64,000 nucleotides of DNA from Acidimicrobiales bacterium (GCA_035530815.1 DATKTZ010000042.1:7810-71809); one strand, 5' to 3'. Numbered from the stretch's first letter, positions 5,967-24,367 are shown. The notes: generated by a model not told the origin, from the letters alone. Program-made: numbers and translations.

Positions 5967-6344
5967 CTAGGACGCGGTCTGCTTGTCGTTGCGCTCGGCG
6001 ATGCGGCGGTGGATGTCCTCCATGTCGAGTTCGCGGACCTTGCCGATGAGCTCCTCGAGGGACTTGGCCGGCAGCGCGCCCGCCTCCATGTAGACAATGA
6101 CGTTGTCGCGCATCACCATGAGCGTCGGGATAGACATGATCGAGAACGCCGCGCCGAGCTCCTGCTGGGCCTCGGTGTCGACCTTGGCGAAGGTAATGTC
6201 GGGGTGAGTGACGGACGCCTTCTCGAAGACCGGGGCGAAGGCCCGGCACGGTCCGCACCATTCCGCCCAGAAGTCCACGAGCACGATGTCCGTGCTGGTC
6301 ATCAACTCGTCGAAGTTTTCCTTGGTGGCGGTCACGGTGGCCAT
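5967..6344 (-). CDS. trxA: thioredoxin
   Basis: DFWAEWCGPC active site, SIPTL; AGGAGA RBS upstream of ATG 6344. Confidence 0.93.
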   Translation of the reverse strand: MATVTATKENFDELMTSTDIVLVDFWAEWCGPCRAFAPVFEKASVTHPDITFAKVDTEAQQELGAAFSIMSIPTLMVMRDNVIVYMEAGALPAKSLEELIGKVRELDMEDIHRRIAERNDKQTAS

Positions 6345-6359
6345 AGGCTCTCCTTGCAA

Positions 6360-6377
6360 TATACCCTAGGGGGTATA
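6360..6377. promoter_or_regulatory. CsoR/CstR/RicR-family operator-like palindrome upstream of trxA
   Basis: TATACCC-TAGG-GGGTATA; perfect 7-bp arms with C/G tracts typical of CsoR-family operators. Confidence 0.7.
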
Positions 6378-6452
6378 GTACACGCTACTCCTCGCAGCGT
6401 GACACCCTCTGAAACCAACCTAGCCCGTGGGTCCCGCGCCCACCAGCCGGCC

Positions 6453-7133
6453 CTAGATCGAGAAGTCTTCCCTGGTCCAGTCGGTGCGCCGCGAGTGCTC
6501 CTCGTGGTGCACCTTGGTGACGCTCTCGAGGCGGTGCAAACGATTCGATAGCGACTCGATGTTGAGTCCCATGAGCTCGTGCTCGAGGCTCTCCTCGGGC
6601 GCCGGGGCCTGGGGGCGACGGTTGCGGGTCGTGATGCGCCCGGGAACTCCCACGACGACCGACTCGGCCGGCACCGACTTGAGCACCACCGCGTTGGCGC
6701 CGATGCGGCTGTCGTCGCCGATGGTGATCGGGCCGAGCACCTTGGCGCCCGCGCCGATGGTGACCCGGTTGCCAATGGTCGGGTGGCGCTTGCCGTGGCT
6801 CAGGCTGGTGCCGCCGAGGGTCACCCCCTGGTAGATCGTCACGTCGTGACCCACCTCGGCGGTCTCGCCGATTACCACACCCATGGCGTGGTCGATGAAG
6901 ACGCCCGCGCCGAGTTGGGCACCCGGATGGATCTCCACCCCGGTGAGCACGCGCGCGAGCGACGAACCCACGCGCGCCGCCAGCTTGGCGTGGTGATGCC
7001 AGAGCCAGTGGGTCAGCCGGTACGCCCAGATCGCGTGCACGCCCGGGTAGGTCAGCGCCACCTCCAGGGCGGAGCGGGCCGCGGGGTCGCGCGTGCGGGC
7101 CGCGTCGAGGTCGCGTCGAAGCGTCGCCAGCAT
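6453..7133 (-). CDS. cysE: serine O-acetyltransferase
   Basis: [41 protein letters not shown] hexapeptide repeats; directly follows cysK. Confidence 0.93.
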
Positions 7134-7135
7134 GC

Positions 7136-8071
<936 letters not shown>

Positions 8072-8128
8072 TGATCGGGCCATCCTTCGTCGTCGTCGAG
8101 TTCAATGCTAACGGGATCCTAAGTATAT

Positions 8129-8602: not shown

Positions 8603-9325
8603 CTAGGCGAGCGCGCCCGCCAGTGAGCTCTCGACGCTGCGCCACTCGTTCAACTTGCGCAGGCAACCCCCGAGCAATCGGTCGTTGAAGCCCGCCAGGT
8701 CATTGACCCGCGGGAACTCGACCTCGGGTACCGCGACACCGAGGAAGGCGCACAGCGGCTCCCAGCCGTCGGTGAAGGACCACACGAGCAAGCGCTCGGC
8801 GGGCACGGTATCGATCACCTCCTGGTTGTAGGCGCGCATCCTCTCGGCCAGTTCGCCCGAATCGAGGTCGATCGCCTCGGCGGAGAAGAGTCCGCTCCTC
8901 TCGAGCATTCGGTGCACCAACTGAGTGAATCCCATCCACTCGGGATCGATGTGTCCGCGCGCCCTCGACAGGTCCCGCATGATCGAGTCGCCGTAGAGGA
9001 AGTCCCAGATCGTGTTCTTGATGCTCTTCGCCCACGCGTCGCCGTCGCGCACACTGAGCAGCACCTTGGCGTCGGGGTACGCCTCAAGCAGTTCGCGCCA
9101 GTAGAACGAGCCCGGCCAGTCCACGCTGGAGCCGAAGCCCGCGAGGACTTCGTTCCAATCCACCCGGCCCTCGAAGGCGTCGGTCCAGGTTGCCACGAGT
9201 TTCGTGTTCCCCAAGACCTCGTCCATGTGGTAGCAGGGCCCAAAGCCCAACAGTTCCAAGGCCACCTTCTGGGAGAGCGTTCCCGTTCGCGGCAGGCCCG
9301 CGCCGATGATCTGAAATTGCGTCAC
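8603..9325 (-). CDS. P-loop sulfotransferase (Sulfotransfer_4-like, PAPS-dependent type), paralogue 1
   Basis: IIGAGLPRTGT, PCYHM, VDWP, YPDAKVLLSVRD, GWEPLCAFL..FPRVN; GTG start with AAAGGGGA RBS. Confidence 0.85.
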   Translation of the reverse strand: MTQFQIIGAGLPRTGTLSQKVALELLGFGPCYHMDEVLGNTKLVATWTDAFEGRVDWNEVLAGFGSSVDWPGSFYWRELLEAYPDAKVLLSVRDGDAWAKSIKNTIWDFLYGDSIMRDLSRARGHIDPEWMGFTQLVHRMLERSGLFSAEAIDLDSGELAERMRAYNQEVIDTVPAERLLVWSFTDGWEPLCAFLGVAVPEVEFPRVNDLAGFNDRLLGGCLRKLNEWRSVESSLAGALA

Positions 9326-9383
9326 TCGTTCCCCTTTGAGAGTCCAATGTCGCCCAGTCTCGGGCACGCAGCTTCCAGGACTC

Positions 9384-9410
9384 TGTGACGATCCTGTGCG
9401 AAGCCTGTGA
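9384..9410 (-). promoter_or_regulatory. 11-bp periodic (T/G)CACAG direct repeats upstream of sulfotransferase 1
   Basis: Plus strand TGTG(A/C) at 9384, 9395 and 9406. Confidence 0.6.
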
Positions 9411-10427: not shown

Positions 10428-11012
10428 CTAGGGCGTGGATAGGGCGGCAATCACCGCCGCGCGCAAGACCGCGACCGACTGCTCGAGCGCCATCTCGCCG
10501 GTAGCGAGGACGAGTTCGGGCGCGAGCGGCGCCTCGTAGGGGTTGTCCACGCCGGTCATGTTGTCGATCTCGCCGTCGCGAGTACGCCGGTAGAGGCTCT
10601 TAGGATCACGCTGCTCGCAAATCTCGAGCGACGCATCCAGGTACACCTCGAAAAAGCCCACACCTTCGTCAGCGTGGCGTGCGCGCACCGCGTCGCGCGC
10701 ACCGCGTCGCGGTGATACCAGGCTCACCACCGTGATGGCTCCCTGGTTCGAGAGCAGCAGGGCGATCTCGCCGGCGCGCCGGACGCTCTCGTCACGGTCC
10801 TCGTTGGTAAAGCCCAGATCGCGGCTGAGACCCCGGCGCAGATGGTCGCCGTCGAGGACCACCACGAACTGGGCGAGGTGATCGAATTCACGTCGCAGCG
10901 CCATCGCCGAGGTGGTCTTGCCCGCCCCGGGCAGCCCGGTCAGCCACACCGTAAGACCCGGTGGCGTCGCGTCGGCGAGCGCAGCCGTGCTCGCGGCGGT
11001 CGCCGCGAGCAC
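10428..11012 (-). CDS. cysC: adenylyl-sulfate (APS) kinase
   Basis: TVWLTGLPGAGKTT, LDGDHLRRGLSRDLGF, RDPKSLY, MTGVDNPYEAP; start codon uncertain. Confidence 0.92.
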   Translation of the reverse strand: MLAATAASTAALADATPPGLTVWLTGLPGAGKTTSAMALRREFDHLAQFVVVLDGDHLRRGLSRDLGFTNEDRDESVRRAGEIALLLSNQGAITVVSLVSPRRGARDAVRARHADEGVGFFEVYLDASLEICEQRDPKSLYRRTRDGEIDNMTGVDNPYEAPLAPELVLATGEMALEQSVAVLRAAVIAALSTP

Positions 11013-11055: not shown

Positions 11056-12555
11056 TTAGAGATGGTGCACCCCCGAGATTCCCAGCAGGTTACCCTGCGC
11101 GTCGAGCGCCTCGACCACGACGTAGGGGGGCTGTTTGGGGGCGATGATCCGGGTCTCGAAACCCTTCTTTCGCACGGTCTTGATCGCCGCGAGCTGATCC
11201 GAGGAGGCTCCGGCGAGCACCCGCCACCGGGCGACCCCGGTCGCCCCGTTCCAGCTGACGTAGATGAGGGTGTTGGCCCCCGAGCGCGCGAGCGTCACCG
11301 AGGGCGGATCGCTCGGCGTCGCGCTCCAGGGCTGCAAGAAAGCCCGGTACGAGATGAGCCCGGCCCCCACCAGGTTGCCGTCGAGGATGAGGTGCCCGTT
11401 GGCGTCGTACTCGGAGAAATACGGCTTGGCGCCCCAACCCACGAAGGTGCCCCCGTCACCCAGCACCTGCACGGTGCCCGAACTGCCCGCGACGAGCGGC
11501 GGCACGTGGATGAACGCGCGCACGAAGGTAGCGGTGCGCTTGGTCTCATCCACCTGAAGAAACAGCGCGCGTGACGGCGGGTGCACGAGGGGCGCCGACT
11601 CGTTGTCGAAGATCGAGTACGCACCCTGGCCGTTGGGGATGACGTGGTGCTGGAAGGCGAAGTGCGTGTCGGGACCCATGGAGAAGTCGCTCTTCTTGCC
11701 GCCCAGTCGCCACAGGAGCTGGCCGGTGGTGCGATGCACTTTGTAGAAGGCCCAACAGTTGCGCGACGAGATGACCAGGTTGCCGTCATCGGGGTCGATG
11801 GCGACCGAGTTGAGGTGGAAGTAGTCCCAGCGGACCGAACCGTTCCTCGAAGGCGCGACGTGAGACTCGTCGAGGTGGATGTAGCGGTCGGTACGCCACG
11901 AGAAGAGCAATTTGCCGGTCGCGACGTCCACCTCTTGGACCTCGCCGTAGAGGTAGTTGCCCTGGGTGGAGCCGCCGTAGGCCGAGAGGTTCGCGTACTG
12001 GATGCCGTAGGTCGAGAAGATTGCGGTGCCCTGGTCGGTCAGGAAGAACTCGTGCAGGTCGCCCATGAGCCCGTTGCCCGCGTGCACCGTGGCGATCGTG
12101 CGATACGAGGTGTCGGCAATGATGTAAACGCCCTCGCCGTGTCCGCCCACGACCGGGCCCTGGTACCAGGTCAGCACGGGTTGACCCTTGTAGGTTTGGA
12201 CGCGCAGATTCATCGCACGCAACGTCGGGGTGCCATTGTCCGACACGGGCCGGAACCAGACGAGGTCGCCGTTGGGGTCGATGATCATCGGGCCCTGCTG
12301 GCCCGAGCCGTCGTGGACGTCAGTCATGATGAGCCCGGGCACCGTGCCCGGGCGCTCGACGGTGATCGCGATGGGCGGTGGGCGGAAGTTCGCGATCGAA
12401 TGGTAGGCGGTCACCGGCCGGTTCTTGGTGGAACCGGTGTTGGTGCTGGCCTGGGAGCAGCTGGCGAGTGTGCTCGCCGCGACCCCCACGCCCGCCACCC
12501 CGGCGGCACCGCGAAGCAGCGTGCGACGACTGATCGCGCGTTCCTGGTCTGTCAC
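11056..12555 (-). CDS. Tat-exported arylsulfotransferase (ASST)-family lipoprotein
   Basis: SRRTLL twin-arginine signal with LASC lipobox; DLHEF, WDYFHLNS, FAFQHH, IFDN, FVGWG, SYRA, YVSWNGAT..GFET. Confidence 0.82.
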   Translation of the reverse strand: MTDQERAISRRTLLRGAAGVAGVGVAASTLASCSQASTNTGSTKNRPVTAYHSIANFRPPPIAITVERPGTVPGLIMTDVHDGSGQQGPMIIDPNGDLVWFRPVSDNGTPTLRAMNLRVQTYKGQPVLTWYQGPVVGGHGEGVYIIADTSYRTIATVHAGNGLMGDLHEFFLTDQGTAIFSTYGIQYANLSAYGGSTQGNYLYGEVQEVDVATGKLLFSWRTDRYIHLDESHVAPSRNGSVRWDYFHLNSVAIDPDDGNLVISSRNCWAFYKVHRTTGQLLWRLGGKKSDFSMGPDTHFAFQHHVIPNGQGAYSIFDNESAPLVHPPSRALFLQVDETKRTATFVRAFIHVPPLVAGSSGTVQVLGDGGTFVGWGAKPYFSEYDANGHLILDGNLVGAGLISYRAFLQPWSATPSDPPSVTLARSGANTLIYVSWNGATGVARWRVLAGASSDQLAAIKTVRKKGFETRIIAPKQPPYVVVEALDAQGNLLGISGVHHL

Positions 12556-12694
12556 TGCTTCCTCCTCGCACCAGCGGGTTCGCCCCGGGTACCTTCGACC
12601 TAGCCCCTCGGCTGTGGTCCCTCGAACATCTCGATTCCGTGTCGTGGACCCGTCGAACCGTCGGCTCGACGCGCGACACCCGCTGACACGGACG

Positions 12695-15640
12695 TCAACC
12701 CTTCACGCGAAAAGATGCCGAAGTCCCCAACACCCGTCCCTGCGCGTCGAGGGCCTCGACCTTGAAGATTTTACTCCCTGGCGCCACCGCGATGGCCGTC
12801 TCGAAGCCGGTCATGGCGTGGGTGGCAATCGGGGTGAGTTGGTTCGCGTCGGCCCCGGCGAGCACGCGCCAGGCGCTGACCAGGGTCGCGCCGTTCCAAC
12901 TCGCGTAGACCGTGGTCGCGCCGTTGCGAGTCAGCGCCGCGGCGCTGGGTGGGTAACTCGGCGTGGCGACCCACGACGCGATCTTGGTGGCGCGGTAGCT
13001 CAGATCAGGATTGGGCAGCACCGCGTCGAGCAGGAGTTGGCCCGACTTGGAGAACTCCGAGAAGTAGGGTAGGTCACCCCAGCCAACGAAGACGTTGCCA
13101 TTGGCAAGGGTCTGGGCGCTGCCCATGTAGGCGGCCGACTCGCCCTGGTGCTGGTACTGGGCAACCACGTTGGCGGTGTGAGTCGCCGGATTCAACTGCA
13201 GCGTGAGCGCACGTGAGGCGCCGGTGGCCGCCAGGTAGGTGTTGGCGCCGGTGATCTCGCAGCAGTGGTCGTCGAAGAGCGTCAGGGTGTTGTTGGGGGC
13301 GAGCATGACGTCGTGCTGCCACTCGAACTCGGCGTGGGGTCCAAAGGTGTAGCTGGAGTTCTTGCCACCGATCTGCCAGGTAATCGCGCCGGTCGCTCGG
13401 TTGACCTCGTAGGCGGCCCAGGTGTTGCGCATCGAGGTGAGGAACGTGCCGTTGCTCGCGACGTCGATCGCGTTGATGTGGTACGCGTCCCAGGGGAAGC
13501 CGTTGGTCGGCGGCGGGATCTGGGAGTCGCTGAGCGGAATGTGCTTGAGCGCGTCCCAGGTGTAGAGCAGCTTGCCCGTGCGCAGGTCGTACTCCTGGAC
13601 CGCGGAGTCGTCAAGGGCCCCGTTGATCGCCCCGCCGTACTTGACGAGGTTCATCGGCACGTTCTTGTTCGCGCTGACCCAGATGTCGTGACCGATGATG
13701 TGGATCGAATGCAGCGTCAAGATCCAGCCGTCCTTGCCACGAATGGTCGCGACGGTGCGGTAGTGCTGGTCGACCACGACGTCGGTGCCCGACTCGGTCG
13801 CGCCGGTGTTGGAGATGACGCCCTGCCACCAGGCGAGCACGGGCTCACCCTCGTAGGACTGCAGCGTGGTGTTCGACGCCACCACGTCGGTGGGTAGCGG
13901 CTTGAACCACACTGGCTGGAGCGCGTTGTTCACGATCAGGGGCCCGCTCTGGCCGACCATGGGCGGGGTCGCCAGGTTGTAGAAGTTGGCGAGCAGGATG
14001 TAGCCCGGCGCCAACTGGCTGGTCTTGGTCGCCACGTCGGTGGTGATCTTGGGCGGATGCAGGTCCGGCGCCGACACGTAGCTGTAGGTGTTGCTAGTCA
14101 CGAAGCGCCCGATGGGTGGGCCGGGTGCGCCGGCCGCCACCAGGTCGACGCCGACGAACGCGGCCACGACGATCACCACGGCGAGGGGCGCGCGCAGGCG
14201 CACCAGCGCCGCCACGGGAGTGGCCGGGCGCTCGGGCGCGGGCAGGCGCACGTAGGTGAGCACCGCGGCGATTGCGGCGAAGGCCGCACCCAACAGGTAC
14301 GCCACGCGAAAGCCGTCGGTCAGGGCGATCGACACCGATCGGTTCTGACCGATCAGGTGGCTCGAGTACTGGCTCGCCACCGAGATCAACAGGGCGATGC
14401 CGACCGCACCGCCCACCTGGCGCGACGTGTTCACCAGGCCCGAGGAGAGTCCCTCGCGCCCGGCGCCGGCACCGTGGGTGGCCGCAATGGTCGACGGGAC
14501 GATCGACAGTCCGATGCCGATCGCCACCAGCATGCCCGGCAGGATCACGTAGCCGATCGCGCTGCCGCTCGAGTTGATTCGCGCGAACAACAGCAGACCG
14601 CTCGTCATCATGACGAGGCCGCCCCCGAGCACCGCGCGCACACCGAAGCGACTCACCAAGCGCCCGGCGCTGCGCGCGGCGATCATGATGACCAGCGACA
14701 TGGGCAGGAACGCCAGCCCGGCGTCGAGTGGCGAGAGACCCAGCACCTGTTGGAGATAGAGCGAGCTCACGTACCACATTGGAAAGAGCGCGGCGCTGAA
14801 CAACAAGACGATGAGGTTGGCGTCGCGCAGGGCCCTGGTAAGCGCCTTGGGCGGAACCAACGGCGCGCTGGCGCGCGACTCGATCCAGGGGAACAGACCA
14901 AGCAGCACCAGACCAAGCACGACCGGGACCACGGTGAGCGGCGCCGCCCAACCGAGTGCACCGGCGTTGACGATGCCGTAAACGAGCACCATGAGCCCGA
15001 GGGTCATCGAAAGCGCGCCCGCCAGGTCGAAGGTGCCGCGCGACTGGTCGCGGGGACGGTCCACGATTACGAAGGCGGCGACCACGGCGGCCGCCACGGC
15101 GATGGGGGGATTGATCAACAGCACCCAGCGCCAGCCGAACCACTGGGTGATGACACCACCAAACAGCGCGCCGGCCGCGCCGCCGGCGCCGTTCATCGCC
15201 CCCCAGAGACTGATGGCGCGGTGGCGGGCCGGGCCCGGTTCGAAGCTCGACGTGATCGCGGCCAACGAGGCCGCGGCCATGAGCGCACCGCTCAGGCCCT
15301 GGACGCTGCGCGCGACGATGAGCAGCAACTGGGTGGGTGCGCTGCCGCCCACGAGCGACGCGATCGCGAAGACCAACAAAGCCGCCACGAGCGTGCGCCG
15401 CTGGCCGAAGTGGTCCGCCGCGCGTCCGCCGAGCATGAGAAAGCCCGCGAAGGCGATGGCGTAGGCGTCCACGACCCACTGGAGGTTGATCGCGCTGAAC
15501 GAGAGGCTGACCTGGATCGAGGGCAGCGCGACGTTGACGATGCTGAGATCGAGGATCACCATGAACTGCGCGACGCAACTCACTACGAGCAGCCACGCCA
15601 GCCGTCGAGTCATCCTGTCAGCACCTGATGTTGACTCCAC
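12695..15640 (-). CDS. fusion of a DHA2 (EmrB/QacA-type) MFS transporter and a C-terminal arylsulfotransferase domain
   Basis: N-half: QFMVILDLSIVNVALPSI, GGRAADHFGQRR, WRWVLLINPP, SGLVNTSRQVGG. Then an extra TM segment. C-half: DAYHINAI, FEWQHD, LFDD, FVGWG, SYRA, YASWNGAT..GFET. One uninterrupted 981-aa ORF; alternative start at 15613. Confidence 0.85.
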   Translation of the reverse strand: MESTSGADRMTRRLAWLLVVSCVAQFMVILDLSIVNVALPSIQVSLSFSAINLQWVVDAYAIAFAGFLMLGGRAADHFGQRRTLVAALLVFAIASLVGGSAPTQLLLIVARSVQGLSGALMAAASLAAITSSFEPGPARHRAISLWGAMNGAGGAAGALFGGVITQWFGWRWVLLINPPIAVAAAVVAAFVIVDRPRDQSRGTFDLAGALSMTLGLMVLVYGIVNAGALGWAAPLTVVPVVLGLVLLGLFPWIESRASAPLVPPKALTRALRDANLIVLLFSAALFPMWYVSSLYLQQVLGLSPLDAGLAFLPMSLVIMIAARSAGRLVSRFGVRAVLGGGLVMMTSGLLLFARINSSGSAIGYVILPGMLVAIGIGLSIVPSTIAATHGAGAGREGLSSGLVNTSRQVGGAVGIALLISVASQYSSHLIGQNRSVSIALTDGFRVAYLLGAAFAAIAAVLTYVRLPAPERPATPVAALVRLRAPLAVVIVVAAFVGVDLVAAGAPGPPIGRFVTSNTYSYVSAPDLHPPKITTDVATKTSQLAPGYILLANFYNLATPPMVGQSGPLIVNNALQPVWFKPLPTDVVASNTTLQSYEGEPVLAWWQGVISNTGATESGTDVVVDQHYRTVATIRGKDGWILTLHSIHIIGHDIWVSANKNVPMNLVKYGGAINGALDDSAVQEYDLRTGKLLYTWDALKHIPLSDSQIPPPTNGFPWDAYHINAIDVASNGTFLTSMRNTWAAYEVNRATGAITWQIGGKNSSYTFGPHAEFEWQHDVMLAPNNTLTLFDDHCCEITGANTYLAATGASRALTLQLNPATHTANVVAQYQHQGESAAYMGSAQTLANGNVFVGWGDLPYFSEFSKSGQLLLDAVLPNPDLSYRATKIASWVATPSYPPSAAALTRNGATTVYASWNGATLVSAWRVLAGADANQLTPIATHAMTGFETAIAVAPGSKIFKVEALDAQGRVLGTSASFRVKG

Positions 15641-15650
15641 TGAGGACTGC

Positions 15651-16373
15651 TCAGTGCCCCGCGCTGGCGCCGGCGTCCTGGGCGGTGAGCCACTCGTTCA
15701 ACTTGGCCATGCACCCACCGATCATCAGGCCACTGAAGCCGGCCGAGTCGTTGACGCGCGGGAACTCGGCCTCAGGCACCGGTACGTCGAGGAACGCGCA
15801 GAGCGGACCCCAGCCCTCGGCGACCGACCACACGAGCAGGCGATCGGCGGGCACCGTGTCGATGACCTCCTGGTTGTAGCGCTCCATGGCGCGGGCCAGC
15901 TCGCCCGAGTCCAAGTCGATCGCGTCGCTCGTCAAGAAGCCACGCCGCTCCCACATTGAGCGCATCAGGTCCGTGTAGCCCTGCCACTCCGGATCGATGC
16001 GCCCGCGCGCGCGCGAGACGTCTTCCATCAAGGAGTCGCCGTAGAGCACGTCCCAGATGGTGGTCTTCATGCTCTTGGCCCACGCGTCACCGTCGCGCAC
16101 GCTGAGCACGACCTTGGCGTCGGGGTAGGCCCCCACTAGTTCCTTGTAGTAGTACGAACCCGGCCAGTCGACGCTGGCGCCGAAGCCGTCGAAGATCTCG
16201 TGCCAGTTGGCGCGGCCCTCGAGGGCGTCGGCCCAGGTGGCCACCAACTTCGTGTTCTGCAGTACCTCGACCATGTGGTAGCAGGGATTAAAGCCCAGCA
16301 TTTCGAGGGCAATTTTCTGCGAAAGTGTGCCCGTTCGCGGCAGACCCGCACCAATTACCTTGAATTCCGTCAT
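15651..16373 (-). CDS. P-loop sulfotransferase (Sulfotransfer_4-like), paralogue 2
   Basis: VIGAGLPRTGT, PCYHM; aligns without gaps to 8603-9325; GAGAGG RBS; ends 10 bp before the MFS-ASST ORF. Confidence 0.87.
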   Translation of the reverse strand: MTEFKVIGAGLPRTGTLSQKIALEMLGFNPCYHMVEVLQNTKLVATWADALEGRANWHEIFDGFGASVDWPGSYYYKELVGAYPDAKVVLSVRDGDAWAKSMKTTIWDVLYGDSLMEDVSRARGRIDPEWQGYTDLMRSMWERRGFLTSDAIDLDSGELARAMERYNQEVIDTVPADRLLVWSVAEGWGPLCAFLDVPVPEAEFPRVNDSAGFSGLMIGGCMAKLNEWLTAQDAGASAGH

Positions 16374-16425
16374 TCACCTCTCGCTTTCGCTGAGCACCAA
16401 CGGACCCCAGTCTTCGACGACAAAC

Positions 16426-16463
16426 TGTGAGACTCCTGTGAGGCACTTGTGATTCGCTTGTGT
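16426..16463 (-). promoter_or_regulatory. 11-bp periodic TCACA direct repeats upstream of sulfotransferase 2
   Basis: Plus strand TGTGA at 16426, 16437 and 16448, TGTGT at 16459. Confidence 0.62.
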
Positions 16464-16733
16464 CGGCCATCCTAGGTCACCACCGACCGGACGATCAACG
16501 GCCGAGGCCCCAGCGGTGGCGCACGTGCACGAGTGCACATTCACGAAATCACAAATGAAGCGCGCAGTGCTGCACGAATTTCGTGAGGTGTTGTGGCCAC
16601 GTTGGGTCGAGATCCGCGACGAAGCACCGCAATGCCACCCAACTAAAGTGAACCAAGACAATCAGTCACGAGTGCTGAATGTCCGAGACGGACGGCGCGA
16701 CGACGACGCCCAGAGAGTGGTGAGCGACGCACG

Positions 16734-18317
16734 ATGGATTCTGAAGACCGCACACCGCTGCTGGGCGAGCCCGCCGACGAGCAGGCCCCCGCAACGATCA
16801 GTCGACGCCGGTTCGTGCTACGCACCCTCGGATGGTTCGCGAGCGTGGGCGTGGCCAGTGCGGTCGGCTACGAGTGGCCCCGGCCCCAGGTCGCGGCCAG
16901 TCCCGCCTCCAACGGCGCGCTCGAAGCGGTGCGCGACTTCGTCAGCCGACCCGACCTGCACCCGCCGCGCATCCGCTTCACCATCACCACCGCGGGGCTC
17001 GAGGTGCTCGGGCGCGAGGCGCTCCAGGGCGGCGACCAGCCGCGCTACATCTTCGTGTCACCGCGCACGACGGGCGAAGACCCCAGCCAGCCCGGGCTCA
17101 TGGTGCTCGACCGTCAGGGGCGGCTCATCTGGTTCGAGCCCAAGCTGACCTCATCACCCTTCGACATGAACGTCCAGACCTACCAGGGCCAGCCCCACCT
17201 CACCTGGTGGGAGGGCGACGTAGTCCACGGTCACGGTGAGGGCGTCGCCAAGATCGCCAACGAGTCCTACCGCGAGGTGAACACGATTCGTGCGGGCCAC
17301 GGCCTGCAGGTCGACCTGCACGAGTTGCGCCTCACCAACGCCGGCACGGCGCTGATCACCGCCTACGAGAACACGACCGCCGATCTCACCAGCGTCGGTG
17401 GCGCCAAGGGCGGGGCGTTGCTCGCGGGCCACGTCCAAGAGATCGACCTCGCGACGGGCGAGGTGCTGTTCGACTGGAACAGCATCGAGCACGTCGGCGT
17501 GGACGAGAGCTACCAGAAGGCACCAACCAAGGCGACCATCGCCTACGACTACTTCCACATCAACTCGATCGCCGAGGACTTCGACGGCAACCTGCTCGTG
17601 GGCGCACGCAACACCTGGGCCGTCTACAAGATCCACCGCCAGACCGGCGAGGTGATGTGGCGCATGAATGGCAAGCGCTCGGACTTCTCTATGGGGCCGG
17701 GCGCCGCGTTCTACTGGCAACACGACACCACGATGCCCGAGCCCTCACTCATGTCGGTCTTCGACGACGGCGGCTATCCCAATGAGGAGAAGCAGTCGCG
17801 CGCCCTGCTCCTGCACGTCGACACCCAGGCGATGACGGTCACCTTGAAGAAGGCCTTCGAGCACCCGGCCGGCTTCGTCGCCGCCAACCAGGGCAACGTC
17901 GAGCTCCTGGCCGACGGTCGCGTCTTCGTGGGCTGGGGCAACCAGCCCTACTTCACCGAGTTCGCCGCCGACGGCACCCTGCTCTTCGACGGCGAGTTCC
18001 CCTCGCCCGTACGTTCCTACCGTGCCTACACCCACCAGTGGGAGGGCACGCCACTCGAGGCGCCGAGCGTGGCCGCACGATCGAACAACGCCGGTGGATC
18101 GATCGTCTACGCGAGCTGGAACGGGTCGACCGAGGTGCGCCACTGGATGGTGCGCGCGGGCAAGGAGCGCAGCGCCCTCGCGCCGGTGGGATCTCAGGAG
18201 TGGACCGGTTTCGAGACCGCCATCGCGGTCAACACTCCGGGCCGCTACTTCTCAGTCACCGCACTGGACAAGGACCAAAAGGAACTCGCCACCTCGGCGA
18301 TCGTCGAGATCGCCTGA
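16734..18317 (+). CDS. Tat-exported/anchored arylsulfotransferase (ASST)-family protein
   Basis: ISRRRFVL followed by a hydrophobic segment; FVSRPDLHPP, DLHEL, YDYFHINSI, FYWQHD, VFDD, FVGWG, YASWNGST..GFET. Confidence 0.82.
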   Translation: MDSEDRTPLLGEPADEQAPATISRRRFVLRTLGWFASVGVASAVGYEWPRPQVAASPASNGALEAVRDFVSRPDLHPPRIRFTITTAGLEVLGREALQGGDQPRYIFVSPRTTGEDPSQPGLMVLDRQGRLIWFEPKLTSSPFDMNVQTYQGQPHLTWWEGDVVHGHGEGVAKIANESYREVNTIRAGHGLQVDLHELRLTNAGTALITAYENTTADLTSVGGAKGGALLAGHVQEIDLATGEVLFDWNSIEHVGVDESYQKAPTKATIAYDYFHINSIAEDFDGNLLVGARNTWAVYKIHRQTGEVMWRMNGKRSDFSMGPGAAFYWQHDTTMPEPSLMSVFDDGGYPNEEKQSRALLLHVDTQAMTVTLKKAFEHPAGFVAANQGNVELLADGRVFVGWGNQPYFTEFAADGTLLFDGEFPSPVRSYRAYTHQWEGTPLEAPSVAARSNNAGGSIVYASWNGSTEVRHWMVRAGKERSALAPVGSQEWTGFETAIAVNTPGRYFSVTALDKDQKELATSAIVEIA

Positions 18318-18336: not shown

Positions 18337-18489
18337 CTAGTAGCCCGGGACGTGGGTCGTGGTGGTGTTCGAGTTACCCGAGCCCGAACCACAGGCCGAC
18401 AGCACCAGCGGGCTGACCGCCAGGGCCAGCGCCGCGACGACCCTGCGCGTGCGCCGCGTCCTCGATACCGAGTTGTTCTTGCCAGGCAT
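18337..18489 (-). CDS. small lipoprotein (50 aa), not in the supplied ORF track
   Basis: Hand translation: MPGKNNSVSRTRRTRRVVAALALAVSPLVLSACGSGSGNSNTTTTHVPGY*. Basic n-region, hydrophobic h-region, LSAC lipobox. Confidence 0.68.
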   Translation of the reverse strand: MPGKNNSVSRTRRTRRVVAALALAVSPLVLSACGSGSGNSNTTTTHVPGY

Positions 18490-20124: not shown

Positions 20125-21447
20125 GTGGACATCGCCACCTTTGTCGCCTCCGTCTTCGGCGGCGAGCTGCCATTTCGGGTCGAGGCCTACGACGGGAGCG
20201 TCGCCGAGGCCAGCGCCGACTCGCCCGCGCGCGAGGTCACCCTCAAGATCCTGCGCCGCGAGGCGATCACGCGCGTGCTGACCCACCCGGGCGAGCTGGG
20301 CCTCGCGCGCGCCTACGTCGCGGGCGACATTGACGTCGACGGCGACCTCGACGCCGTATTTCAACTGACGGTTCCCCCGGCGCGCCAGCTGCTGAAGGCC
20401 GCCAACGTGCGCTCGTTGCTGTCCGTGGTGGGCGCCGACGCCCTGCGCCCCCTGCCGCCACCGCCCATCGAGGCTCGCCAACGCGGCGTGCTGCACAGCC
20501 GCGGACGCGACCGCCAGGCGATCTCGCACCACTACGACGTCTCGAACCGCTTCTACGAGTTGGTGCTCGGTCCCTCGATGACCTACTCGTGCGCCGTATT
20601 CCGATCGCCCGAGGAGACCCTCGAGGCCGCCCAGACGCGCAAGGTCGACCTGGTAGCGAGAAAACTCGACCTGAAGCCGGGTATGCGACTGCTCGACGTG
20701 GGCTGCGGGTGGGGCGCGATGGGCATCCACGCGGCCACCCACTACGGTGCGTCGGTGGTGGGCGTCACGCTGTCCGAGCCCCAGCGGCGCTACGCCACCG
20801 AGCGGGCCAAACTCGCCGGGGTGAGCGACCTGGTCGAGTTCCGGGTCCAGGACTACCGCGACGTGAGCGACGGGCCCTTCGACGCCATCAGCTCGATCGG
20901 CATGTCCGAGCACGTGGGCCGACGCTCCCTGGGCGCCTACACCCAGAACCTCTTCGACCTGCTCGTGCCCGGCGGGCGCTTCCTCAACCACGCGATCGGC
21001 CGGCCGGTCTCGTTCGACGAGGACCCCCAGCCCTCGCGCGGCTCCGAGCTGAACCGCCAGATCCAGATCGCCCTGGGTATGCGCGGCCCCTCCAAGACCG
21101 GCAGCCAGTTCATCGATCGCTACGTCTTTCCCGACGGCGAGTTGCACGAGGTGGGCACGCTCGTCTCGATGTTCCAGGCCCACGGCTTCGAGGTGCGCCA
21201 CCTGGAGAGCCTGCGCGAGCACTACGCGCTGACCCTGCGCCGGTGGGTCGACAACTTGGTGAAGCGCTTCGATGAAGCGGTCGAGGAGGTCGGCGAGCAG
21301 CGGGCACGGGTGTGGCGGCTGTACATGGCGGGCTCGGCGGTGGCCTTCGAGCGTCACCACCTCGAGATCCACCAGATCCTGAGCGTGCGACCCCACGAGG
21401 GGGCGAGCACCATGGCCCTGCGCAACGACTTCGAGCCCACCTCCTAG
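20125..21447 (+). CDS. cfa: cyclopropane-fatty-acyl-phospholipid synthase family SAM methyltransferase
   Basis: ISHHYDVSNRFY, MTYSCA, LLDVGCGWG, SIGMSEHVG, YVFPDGEL, HYALTL; GAAAGGAG RBS before GTG. Confidence 0.88.
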   Translation: MDIATFVASVFGGELPFRVEAYDGSVAEASADSPAREVTLKILRREAITRVLTHPGELGLARAYVAGDIDVDGDLDAVFQLTVPPARQLLKAANVRSLLSVVGADALRPLPPPPIEARQRGVLHSRGRDRQAISHHYDVSNRFYELVLGPSMTYSCAVFRSPEETLEAAQTRKVDLVARKLDLKPGMRLLDVGCGWGAMGIHAATHYGASVVGVTLSEPQRRYATERAKLAGVSDLVEFRVQDYRDVSDGPFDAISSIGMSEHVGRRSLGAYTQNLFDLLVPGGRFLNHAIGRPVSFDEDPQPSRGSELNRQIQIALGMRGPSKTGSQFIDRYVFPDGELHEVGTLVSMFQAHGFEVRHLESLREHYALTLRRWVDNLVKRFDEAVEEVGEQRARVWRLYMAGSAVAFERHHLEIHQILSVRPHEGASTMALRNDFEPTS

Positions 21448-21557
21448 GGCGCGACTGCGCGCCGCAGCCGCGACGCGAAACTGAAGTGATTCTCAATCGT
21501 CAGAACTTCACACCCGATTCTTTCGCGCTTCTTACCTTGTTTCGTTACGGTGCTCGC

Positions 21558-22946
21558 ATGGCTTCGACCGATCAACTGACCACGGGTGAGTATCCCTGGA
21601 CCAGGGCCGCCGCCCCCTCGCGTCCCGCGCCCGCACCGATCCCCTGGGTCGCCGACGCGCTCGGCGTGGCGGCCGGGCTGGGTCTGGGCGTCATCGTCGC
21701 CATCCTGGTCGCCAACGAGTCGCGCGCCACACTCGCCGCACCCGGCGGGGTGCTCACCGCCCTCGGCCGGCTCACCGGGTTCACCGGCACCTACCTGATG
21801 CTGATCATGATCGTGCTCATCTCGCGCCTCCACTGGCTCGAGCGCGTCGCGGGCCAGGACCGGCTGGTGCGCTGGCACCGGACCATCGGCGGCTGGCCCA
21901 TCGTGCTCATCGCGGCGCACATCGTGTTCATCACACTCGGCTACGCCCAGACCACCAACGTGGGACCGCTGCACCAGTTCTGGACCATCCTCGCGCACTA
22001 CCCCGACATCCTCGCCTCGTTGGTGGGCTTCGCCCTACTCGTGCTGGCCGGGGTCAGCTCGGCCAAGATCGCGCGGCGCCGCCTCAAGTACGAGACCTGG
22101 TGGGCAGTGCACCTGTACATGTACCTCGCCCTGGCGCTGGCCTTCGCGCACCAGATCAAGATCGGCGTGCCCTTCCTCGGACACCCCCTCACCCGCGACT
22201 TCTGGATCGCGCTGTGGGTTGTCGTCGGCCTGGTCGCGCTCTCGTACCGCGTCATCACCCCGCTCGTGAAGAACCTGCGCTACCAGTTGCGCGTGGCCAG
22301 CGTCACCGAGGAGGTACCCGGGGTCTACTCGCTCACCTTCACCGGCAGGAACCTCTCACGCCTGGCCGTCGCGGGCGGTCAGTTCTTCCAGTGGCGCTTC
22401 TTCGCGAAGGACCTCTGGTGGCACTCGCACCCGTTCTCGCTCTCGGCGATGCCCCAACCCCCCTACCTACGCATCACCGTCAAGGCCGTCGGTGACCAGT
22501 CCTCGGCCCTCGCGCGGGTCCGGCCGGGCACCCGGGTATTCGTCGAGGGACCCTACGGCACCTTCACCAAACACGCCCGTTCGAGCGACCACGTCACCCT
22601 CATCGGCGCGGGCGTCGGCATCACCCCGCTGCGCGCCATCCTGGAGGACCTGCCGGCTCAGGTCAACGTCTCGGTCATCATCCGCGCCTCGAGTGTCAAC
22701 GGCGTTATCCACCGCGACGAGATCCAGGCTCTGGTGGAGGCGCGCAACGGCGACTACCACGAGGTCATCGGCCCACGCGCGCGCGTGCGCCTCGACGCGC
22801 GCGCACTGCGCAAGATCGTCACGAACCTGCACCACGGCGACGTCTACATCTGTGGCCCCCACGACTTCGCCAACGACATCGAGACGGCCGTGATCAAGGC
22901 CGGTGTCGGCACCGAACGAATCCACCGCGAGCAATTCGCCTTCTAG
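21558..22946 (+). CDS. ferric reductase-like transmembrane protein with FNR-type FAD/NAD domain
   Basis: TM His motifs (RWHR, AHI, WAVHLY, FAHQ); HPFSLS, EGPYG, GAGVGITP, YICGP, HREQFAF. Confidence 0.88.
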   Translation: MASTDQLTTGEYPWTRAAAPSRPAPAPIPWVADALGVAAGLGLGVIVAILVANESRATLAAPGGVLTALGRLTGFTGTYLMLIMIVLISRLHWLERVAGQDRLVRWHRTIGGWPIVLIAAHIVFITLGYAQTTNVGPLHQFWTILAHYPDILASLVGFALLVLAGVSSAKIARRRLKYETWWAVHLYMYLALALAFAHQIKIGVPFLGHPLTRDFWIALWVVVGLVALSYRVITPLVKNLRYQLRVASVTEEVPGVYSLTFTGRNLSRLAVAGGQFFQWRFFAKDLWWHSHPFSLSAMPQPPYLRITVKAVGDQSSALARVRPGTRVFVEGPYGTFTKHARSSDHVTLIGAGVGITPLRAILEDLPAQVNVSVIIRASSVNGVIHRDEIQALVEARNGDYHEVIGPRARVRLDARALRKIVTNLHHGDVYICGPHDFANDIETAVIKAGVGTERIHREQFAF

Positions 22947-22987
22947 AACTACGAGGTAACCATGACCCCACGAACCGCGAGCGCGAC

Positions 22988-23578
22988 GTGAAGAGGGCCC
23001 CGTTCATCATCACCGGCACCATCGTCGGCCTCGCGGGTGTGCTCAGCTTTCGCTCCACCCCGGCCAAGATCAGCCTGGGGGCGCTCCCGACGAGCGCGGT
23101 GGTGAAGAACGCCACGACCAGTCAGTCCACCACCACCGCTACTGGTTCGCCAGGGTCTTCGACGACGAGCCCGCCGAGCACGACGCGCGCCACGACGTCA
23201 CCCCCCACGACGGTGCCCACCAGACGTGCGAGCACCACCACGACACCCACCACGACGACACCCACCACGACGGTGCCGGTCACCACGGCGCCCACCACCC
23301 GCACCGCGGTGGGACCGAGTGTCAACTACTACTTCGGCATCCTGTCGGTCTCGGTGACCGCCACCGGGACCCGCGTCCAGAAGGTGACCATCCACTCGAT
23401 CAACGACGGCGGCAATCCGCGATCGCAGTACATCGACCAGGCGTCGATCCCGATGCTCGAACAGCAGGCGCTCGCGGCCCAGAACGCGAACATCCAGGGC
23501 GTCTCGGGCGCGAGCTACACGAGCGCGGGCTTCAAGATGTCGCTCCAGGGGGCTCTCAAGCAGCTGGGCATCAAGTAG
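22988..23578 (+). CDS. extracytoplasmic FMN-binding (flavinylation substrate) protein
   Basis: N-terminal signal, Thr/Pro-rich linker, IQGVSGASYTS flavinylation motif. Confidence 0.85.
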   Translation: MKRAPFIITGTIVGLAGVLSFRSTPAKISLGALPTSAVVKNATTSQSTTTATGSPGSSTTSPPSTTRATTSPPTTVPTRRASTTTTPTTTTPTTTVPVTTAPTTRTAVGPSVNYYFGILSVSVTATGTRVQKVTIHSINDGGNPRSQYIDQASIPMLEQQALAAQNANIQGVSGASYTSAGFKMSLQGALKQLGIK

Positions 23579-24367
23579 ATGTCGCGCACGCGACCCCAGA
23601 CGACGCACGCGACCCTGCACTTCGAGCACGAGGTGATGGGCACGGTGGTGACCTTCGACCTCTACCGCGCCGCGGGTCTGTCGCGCGAGGACCTCGAGAC
23701 CCGGCTCGTTCGAAGCGTCGCGACACTGGACGAGGCGGACACCGTATTCAGCACGTGGAAGCCCGACAGCGCGCTGAGTCGGCTGCGCCACGGCACCATT
23801 AGCCTCGGTGAAGCGCCACCCGACGTGGCCGAAGTGCTCGCTGAGTGCAAGGACACCAAGCATCTCTCGGGCGGCTGGTTCGACCCGTGGGCCGTGCCCG
23901 GCGGTGTGGACCCCACCGGTTACGTGAAGGGGTGGGCGACCCAGCGCGCGCTCGGCCACCTCGTCGACGCGGGACTCGACGGCGCGATGATCAACGCCGC
24001 GGGCGACATCGCCAGCTTCGGCGGGCCCGGCCGCGACACGAGCTTTCGCGTGGGCATCGTCAATCCCGCCTCACCACTGCAGTTGGCGTGCGCGGTCGAG
24101 CTTCGCGGCGCGTTGGCGACGTCGGGCACCTACGAGCGCGGGTCGCACCTCGTCAACCCCTTCACCGGTGTGCACGAGACTCGCGTAGCCTCGGCCAGCG
24201 TGACGGGCCCCGACCTTGGCGTCGCCGACGCGCTGGCCACCGCCTTGTGCGTGGGCGGCGATGAGGTGCTCGCCATCATCGAGCACCTCGCACACTACGA
24301 GGCGTTCATCATCGGCCACGACGGCCACCGCCAGTGGACGAGCGACTTCGCCTTCGCCCCGCTGTAG
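23579..24367 (+). CDS. apbE: FAD:protein FMN transferase
   Basis: VMGT, FSTWKPDS, DPTGYVKGWA, NAAGDI, ATSGTYERGSH, ADALATA. Confidence 0.9.
   Translation: MSRTRPQTTHATLHFEHEVMGTVVTFDLYRAAGLSREDLETRLVRSVATLDEADTVFSTWKPDSALSRLRHGTISLGEAPPDVAEVLAECKDTKHLSGGWFDPWAVPGGVDPTGYVKGWATQRALGHLVDAGLDGAMINAAGDIASFGGPGRDTSFRVGIVNPASPLQLACAVELRGALATSGTYERGSHLVNPFTGVHETRVASASVTGPDLGVADALATALCVGGDEVLAIIEHLAHYEAFIIGHDGHRQWTSDFAFAPL

Follow-up and report, generated by a model that had tools for sequence, protein, structure and literature searches.

Arylsulfate sulfotransferases (ASSTs) act outside the cytoplasm, where 3'-phosphoadenosine 5'-phosphosulfate (PAPS) is absent, and their natural donors and roles in bacteria are an acknowledged open question (PMC13426309). 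In a 64,000-nucleotide stretch of an Acidimicrobiales genome (GCA_035530815.1, DATKTZ010000042.1:7810-71809; hereafter the window), the question of how such enzymes could be supplied is raised by a single gene, in which a predicted exporter of the major facilitator superfamily (MFS) runs in frame into an ASST domain. This fusion is a genuine gene, widely conserved among uncultured soil actinobacteria. We give even chances to the idea that it forms the point at which a sulfuryl relay crosses the membrane: a small aryl-sulfate would be exported, and its sulfuryl group would pass to a tyrosine arm and from there to other surface ASSTs. The gene and its parts, in window positions, are:

12695..15640, minus strand: MFS-ASST fusion gene, 981 aa from a GTG start; probable true start the ATG at 15613, giving 972 aa
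14246..15616, minus strand: 14-helix DHA2-type MFS domain, residues 9-465
14135..14218, minus strand: 15th helix, a captured signal peptide and probable membrane anchor, residues 475-502
12698..14107, minus strand: Cpz4-like ASST domain, residues 512-981, with H644, H721, N723, R738, H776, D791 and C793-C794 invariant

The reading frame is open over all 981 codons with zero internal stops, and Pfam recognises MFS_1 at residues 22-414 (E-value 1.9e-47) and Arylsulfotran_2 at residues 594-873 (E-value 5.7e-35). The AlphaFold2 model of the protein (mean predicted local distance difference test score (pLDDT) 89, predicted template modelling score 0.85) consists of 14 MFS helices, a 15th helix, a short hinge, a beta-propeller and a C-terminal beta-sandwich. 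The original prediction, made from the window alone, had described one frame joining a DHA2 MFS to a full ASST domain, and this description is borne out by Pfam, by the model and by the HIN (H721, N723) and QHD (H776) motifs, which are invariant in 121 of 121 fusions. It had also singled out the junction, at 14050-14260, as the place where reads might reveal a stop or frameshift. We find this interval covered without gaps by a contig of run X1, a possible source run (13574-14578), and by a contig of the independent study X2 (13824-14442); in a related strain (X4), a contig carrying two compensating 1-nt indels extends across 12674-16488. Contigs of three studies thus span the junction. Codon changes relative to the related strain are 178 synonymous versus 58 non-synonymous (102 versus 17 in the MFS, 69 versus 36 in the ASST domain). 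Together with at least 120 full-length homologues that have both domains, at 62-94% identity, the junction-spanning contigs and the mostly synonymous divergence rule out an assembly artefact. The idea that homologues are always split falls as well: many short matches are truncated or frameshifted fusions, and the true unfused relatives are without helix 15. Public annotation starts the gene at the ATG at 15613, as it does in a 94%-identical relative, so that 37 bp separate the fusion from the stop codon of the sulfotransferase gene upstream; the 10 bp first reported apply only if the distance is counted to the GTG at 15640.

Residue conservation was counted over an alignment of 121 fusion sequences (120 in some counts), and gene neighbourhoods over the 80 best genome loci of the fusion (81 neighbourhoods in some counts). 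These 80 loci belong to Solirubrobacterales, Acidimicrobiales, Streptosporangiales and other actinobacterial metagenome-assembled genomes (MAGs), mostly from soil and peat. The distribution is patchy: the fusion is carried by 10 of 151 sampled Solirubrobacterales genomes and 3 of 151 Acidimicrobiales genomes, by none of the 400 other genomes in a phylum-wide sample, and it is also absent from three sampled family members. Literature searches returned neither an MFS-ASST fusion nor a sulfo-Tyr carrier, in agreement with the initial remark that no characterised protein of such architecture was known. In one long-read MAG (L012:9278-12889), sulfotransferase, MFS and ASST share a single frame of about 1200 aa, with a 10-residue linker and a high third-position G+C content over the join; this triple fusion was not seen in 30 relatives and is possibly an assembly error.

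The N- and C-termini of DHA2 proteins are both cytoplasmic, and the expectation had been that an extra helix, bringing the total to 15, puts the ASST domain outside. The AlphaFold2 model has these 15 helices; Kyte-Doolittle analysis alone gives 13 peaks and misses two Gly-rich helices, so that the count rests on the model. The additional segment is hydrophobic in 121 of 121 homologues, with F495 in 119 and D499 in 101 of them. Lys and Arg residues around it average 3.45 before versus 0.74 after, with more before than after in all 121, and the segment itself can be aligned to the Sec signal peptides found in a sister group of stand-alone ASSTs. Taking this alignment together with the positive-inside rule, the ASST domain is predicted to be extracytoplasmic. 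By the alignment, the fusion arose by capture of a whole secreted ASST. A strict A-x-A cleavage motif is found in 110 of 111 stand-alone sisters versus 49 of 120 fusions. Since this motif has been eroded in the fusions while F495 and D499 are conserved, helix 15 is more likely to be an uncleaved anchor than a substrate of signal peptidase.

Within the MFS domain, D31 (the acidic residue of the first transmembrane helix, TM1), R73 and D76 of motif A and the motif B Arg R111 are conserved in 121 of 121 sequences, and R407 is also invariant. The best NCBIfam matches are DHA2 exporters, every one of them under its cut-off (TIGR00711, 213.8 bits versus 230.2 required), and a fold search returns EfpA at a template modelling score (TM-score) of 0.83 of target. 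The domain is thus a predicted exporter sharing its 14 helices, TM1 Asp and motif A and B residues with the DHA2 pumps EfpA, QacA and EmrB. Unlike them, it falls under all NCBIfam cut-offs, belongs to a sulfation-linked clade of its own and carries a 15th helix and an enzyme domain. All fused MFS domains group in a single clade (support 100), which branches from within a set of unfused relatives (56-65% identity). Five unfused relatives were looked up, and each immediately follows an ASST gene (stop/start overlap or at most 15 bp apart), with a sulfotransferase nearby in four and cysC additionally in three; more distant unfused relatives have cysC only, or no sulfur genes. The existence of unfused ASST-MFS operons with sulfation genes indicates that the link between this MFS and sulfation is older than the fusion, and by clade and gene linkage the transporter appears to be dedicated to sulfation. 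At L084:5197-6087 and L087:5231-6124, unfused ASST-MFS operons are headed by a PHP-family nucleoside-bisphosphate phosphatase-like gene, probably a phosphatase for 3'-phosphoadenosine 5'-phosphate (PAP).

The ASST domain scores 121.6 bits against PF14269 (cut-off 27 bits), and its best fold matches are the Cpz4 entries 9KF6 and 9KF4 (TM-scores 0.92 and 0.91 of target, 37% identity). H644 and R738 are as fully conserved in the fusions as the two motifs. By motif and spacing, H644, H721, N723, R738 and H776 correspond to H252, H356, N358, R374 and H436 of the E. coli ASST, the catalytic set of that enzyme, with H436 as catalytic residue (PMC13426309), and the fusion histidines align with those of 9KF4. 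With the His triad intact, sulfo-His chemistry is predicted by homology. The periplasmic ASST of E. coli CFT073 (3ETS, 4P04) shares the propeller, the His triad with Asn and Arg, and the exported location; unlike the fusion, it is soluble and without a transporter, and it is 12-13% identical to the fusion's ASST domain. The vicinal pair C793-C794, invariant in the fusions, marks a clade composed of the fused domains and the stand-alone sister group (support 100).

Genomes with the fusion encode 2-14 ASST domains (59 of 59), and in a crude scan 115 of 118 neighbouring stand-alone ASSTs had an N-terminal hydrophobic stretch, a twin-arginine motif or a lipobox. Two of these enzymes flank the fusion in the window:

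16734..18317, plus strand: stand-alone ASST bearing a twin-arginine motif and running divergently to the operon
11056..12555, minus strand: stand-alone ASST that lies downstream and bears a twin-arginine-like motif and a lipobox-like Cys

The fourth ASST of the same genome lies immediately behind a Mur-ligase-family gene (L082:7909-9612), and several sister ASSTs elsewhere sit among envelope genes (DUF354, CapD-like, LytR, BacA, DedA). Secreted stand-alone ASSTs at L058:1561-3126, L114 and L115:7001-8578 belong to a conserved family with the vicinal Cys pair and a Tyr-ended tail of their own. At 22 of 81 loci (L014:14827-16764 and 21 others, in Solirubrobacterales), a conserved sulfatase is convergent to the ASST array and may reverse the modification; no homologue was found in the genome of the window.

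What could feed these enzymes is suggested by the genes around the fusion on the cytoplasmic side of the pathway:

15651..16373, minus strand: PAPS-dependent sulfotransferase (Sulfotransfer_4), directly upstream of the fusion; best PDB matches 9KF1 and SgdX2
8603..9367, minus strand: another Sulfotransfer_4 gene, sharing 70% identity with the first; translation probably begins near 9325
10428..11012, minus strand: cysC, adenosine 5'-phosphosulfate kinase, which makes PAPS; only copy found in this genome
9440..10450, minus strand: secreted-type phosphoesterase; gene order kept in the related strain
16426..16463, minus strand: TCACA direct repeats with 11-bp spacing, upstream of the first sulfotransferase; probable regulator site
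9384-9410: similar set of TCACA repeats, upstream of the second sulfotransferase

The match 9KF1 stands in the same PDB number series as the Cpz4 entries. Sulfotransfer_4 genes were found within the fetched flanks at 20 of 81 fusion loci, directly upstream of the fusion in 12, and anywhere in the genome in 49 of 50 fusion genomes. In the Solirubrobacterales sample they occur in 11 of 11 genomes with a fusion-clade MFS versus 15 of 140 without, and in the Acidimicrobiales sample in 3 of 3 genomes with the fusion versus 0 of 148 without; these order-level counts include kin, which are non-independent, and are to be read as patterns rather than p-values. One Acidimicrobiales genome has two copies of the fusion, each with its own upstream sulfotransferase. 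The link between fusion and sulfotransferase, first proposed from their adjacency, therefore holds well beyond this locus. The TCACA repeats resemble an OmpR/PhoB-type site and are conserved in the related strain and in L001. A general role as a regulator site was rejected, since of the 21 regions examined upstream of other sulfotransferases no more than 2 had a match.

Supply of PAPS is also encoded: in this genome cysDN and cysH are located on another contig, and the only cysC lies inside the cluster. PAP-removing enzymes (CysQ-like and PHP nucleoside-bisphosphate phosphatase-like) and cysDNC are found beside the module, which fits the forward direction. The CysH (L081:8081-8752) keeps a Cys-Cys pair without the second Cys of CxxC; with one cluster cysteine missing, it may use PAPS or adenosine 5'-phosphosulfate, so that cysC may or may not serve sulfation alone. 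Directly downstream of the sulfation cluster and on the same strand lie cysK, cysE and a thioredoxin-like gene (5967-8083). As for a small carrier, a type III polyketide synthase (PKS) is present in 29 of 60 related genomes, and in 21 of these 29 it lies at most 2.5 kb from the sulfotransferase. One open reading frame (L010:8895-10583) fuses a Sulfotransfer_4 domain to a type III PKS and adjoins the MFS-ASST fusion.

The most specific partner of the fused ASST domain is a small lipoprotein:

18337..18489, minus strand: 50-aa lipoprotein with signal peptide, lipobox Cys, Gly/Ser/Thr tether and C-terminal Tyr; proposed sulfuryl arm

The 80 fusion loci and the whole genome of the window were scanned for segments in which a polar, low-complexity tail comes after a hydrophobic stretch. 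The fusion loci gave 84 segments, of which 68 are Tyr-ended (one per locus); 66 of these 68 have a lipobox, and they usually lie immediately upstream of the fusion in divergent orientation. Across the whole genome, 18337-18489 is the only Tyr-ended segment among 27. After inspection, a Tyr arm is recognised at 75 of 80 loci (five added by eye, two more with the tail on a stand-alone ASST), and three of the five loci without one have short flanks. Conservation is limited to the last residues, Pro/Gln-Gly/Ala-Tyr, and the tether varies from 20 to about 150 residues. A hidden Markov model of the lipopeptide is unspecific genome-wide, with matches in 151 of 151 genomes; four of its five best matches lie beside fusions.

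The terminal Tyr is also found within ASSTs themselves. It ends the tail of 119 of 120 stand-alone sister ASSTs versus 1 of 120 fusions, and of 3 of 117 other ASSTs of the fusion loci. As the sisters are Tyr-tailed, whereas the fusions are not but are accompanied by a Tyr lipopeptide, the terminal Tyr of this ASST clade is provided in cis, or in trans when the enzyme is fused to the exporter. No Tyr-ended arm gene was found near the unfused-MFS loci examined. At L043:14607-16208 and L056:14461-15996, an ordinary stand-alone ASST bears a Tyr tail and a small Cys loop, and the free lipopeptide is absent.

Starting from this architecture, the conserved catalytic residues, the gene associations and the invariant Tyr, we propose a relay of four steps. 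In the cytoplasm, CysDN and CysC would make PAPS, from which a Cpz8-like sulfotransferase would load a small phenol- or pyrone-type carrier, which in roughly half of the genomes may come from a type III PKS. The sulfated carrier would then be exported by the MFS domain. Outside, the fused ASST, held there by helix 15, would take the sulfuryl group onto H776 and hand it on to the Tyr at the C-terminus of the lipopeptide on its tether, so that a diffusible donor becomes membrane-bound and sulfate is trapped at the membrane rather than lost. Finally, other exported ASSTs would use the sulfo-Tyr arm as donor for extracytoplasmic acceptors, most likely cell-envelope glycans. The topology and the chemistry of the first and third steps are supported by homology; the cargo and direction of the MFS, the sulfation of the Tyr, the hand-over in the fourth step and the final acceptor we infer. 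Whether donor or acceptor is exported had been left open, and the evidence favours the donor: we judge it probable that a sulfuryl donor is what the protein carries outward, to serve the ASSTs there. Given such export, Tyr sulfation is very probable, and ASSTs do accept Tyr peptides; given Tyr sulfation, the residue is probably a carrier rather than a product.

Both halves of this scheme have precedents. The route from Cpz8 via a pyrone to Cpz4 is a described two-step sulfation relay (PMC6731281), and the Cpz6/Cpz8/Cpz4 system for caprazamycin sulfation in Streptomyces sp. MK730-62F2 (9KF4, 9KF6; PMC6731281, PMC13426309) shares with ours a Cpz4-fold ASST with His triad, a Sulfotransfer_4 partner and, where a PKS is present beside the sulfotransferase, the Cpz6-Cpz8 pairing. 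Unlike in the caprazamycin system, the ASST here is fused to an exporter, has a vicinal Cys pair, is accompanied by a Tyr-ended arm and is one of several per genome, and half of the fusion genomes, this one included, have no PKS that we could find. No liponucleoside or antibiotic cluster genes that could provide an acceptor are conserved in the 81 neighbourhoods, and the locus is not of caprazamycin type. For acyl groups, DltX and PatA provide known cases of a Tyr that shuttles from enzymes in the membrane to enzymes outside it (PMC12148441). DltB-DltX-DltD and PatA-PatB share with the proposed relay the export of an activated cytoplasmic group and a C-terminal Tyr, borne by a small membrane protein or by the tail of an enzyme, bridging two active sites, and an invariant Tyr at an extracytoplasmic C-terminus is found here too; OatA, of AT3-SGNH architecture, shares a membrane domain fused to an outer transferase (PMC12148441). 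The group transferred would be sulfuryl, not acyl, and would pass the membrane attached to a small carrier, by way of a transporter; the proteins are MFS and beta-propeller rather than MBOAT and SGNH, and the tail lacks FXYXXF, the motif of the DltX family. The Tyr arm is at most analogous, not homologous, to DltX.

Several points weigh against the relay. As a sulfuryl donor, tyrosyl sulfate is less activated than nitrophenyl sulfate, which makes the fourth step the weakest, and an acceptor pathway conserved beside the fusion was not found in the neighbourhoods. The type III PKS was not found in 31 of 60 genomes, among them that of the window (86% complete), and was rejected as a universal carrier source, nor is any alternative gene for making a carrier conserved in the vicinity of the sulfotransferase. 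With the exception of R445, located where helix 14 ends on the outside, the MFS has no clade-specific added membrane charge that would mark an anion site. L013 and L052, with complete flanks, have no detectable arm, and in the AlphaFold2 model of a Tyr-tailed sister ASST the tail is disordered (pLDDT <50), with no docking seen.

The alternative that survives best, although unlikely, agrees with the relay as far as the Tyr, but makes the sulfo-Tyr lipopeptide (or Tyr-tailed secreted ASST) the end product, a surface tag or signal, with the other ASSTs taking the small carrier directly. That the terminal Tyr is invariant, with only Pro/Gln-Gly/Ala conserved before it, is what would be expected of such a tag, and the unfused systems, which run several ASSTs without an arm, indicate that ASSTs can be fed without one. 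However, the tail swaps between free lipopeptide, sister ASST and ordinary ASST, and this mobility, together with the variable tether, is more easily reconciled with a swinging arm than with a signal that has to be recognised.

It is distinctly unlikely that the fusion does no more than bring exporter and enzyme to one place or into one translation product, with a freely diffusing donor, an ASST perhaps clipped by signal peptidase after helix 15 and the Tyr peptide acting as plug or regulator. The origin of helix 15 as a captured signal peptide would allow this, as would the A-x-A motifs still present in some fusions, the low-confidence hinge at residues 508-511 and the existence of split operons. 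Against it stand the erosion of the cleavage motif relative to the sisters, the newly conserved F495 and D499, and the retention of the fusion as one clade over at least three actinobacterial orders.

Acceptor export or detoxification, in which the MFS would pump out a metabolite or a phenolic from soil in unsulfated form, to be sulfated by the ASST as it leaves, so as to block its return or to mature a natural product, we consider improbable. An outer enzyme would still need a donor, for which no second exporter is conserved; there is no conserved biosynthetic cluster nearby, and the Tyr arm is left unexplained. This has to be set against the usual export of hydrophobic or cationic compounds by DHA2 pumps, the retention of the acidic D31, the action of Cpz4 on an antibiotic and the origin of many fusion genomes in peat and soil. 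Inward scavenging, with surface ASSTs and sulfatase stripping sulfate esters, the fused ASST loading a carrier for import by the MFS, and the sulfotransferase reversed to give PAPS for cysteine, is very improbable: cysK and cysE just downstream, the sulfatase at 22 of 81 loci and the incomplete CysH cluster speak for it, but the neighbours are cysC, cysDN and PAP phosphatases, PAP removal prevents the sulfotransferase from running in reverse, CysDN is encoded in the genome itself, and DHA2 proteins are exporters.

Returning to the relay, the two-step chemistry is known from caprazamycin, while the fusion, the Tyr arm and the cis/trans pattern of the Tyr tail are undescribed, with a real chance that they represent a new general mechanism. 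In its widest form this would be a general extracytoplasmic sulfation machine, comprising PAPS, carrier, exporter, loading ASST, lipid-anchored sulfo-Tyr swinging arm and surface ASSTs sulfating envelope polymers, to which we give somewhat less than even chances. Each step in a possible supply of donor to ASSTs can be named from this locus. If the relay exists, sulfotyrosine would be a carrier and not an end modification, a sulfuryl counterpart of the DltX/PatA acyl shuttle and a new role for this residue, and there would be a rule for surface sulfation by abundant soil actinobacteria. There would also be an ASST clade specialised for C-terminal Tyr peptides, which could serve PAPS-free peptide sulfation. 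The model can be tested with small, easy reagents: a synthetic Tyr peptide, the soluble ASST domain and one point mutant.

Elsewhere in the window, at 21312-24367, a ferric-reductase-like membrane protein, an FMN-binding protein and an ApbE-like flavin transferase, as read from their translations, are encoded in a row.

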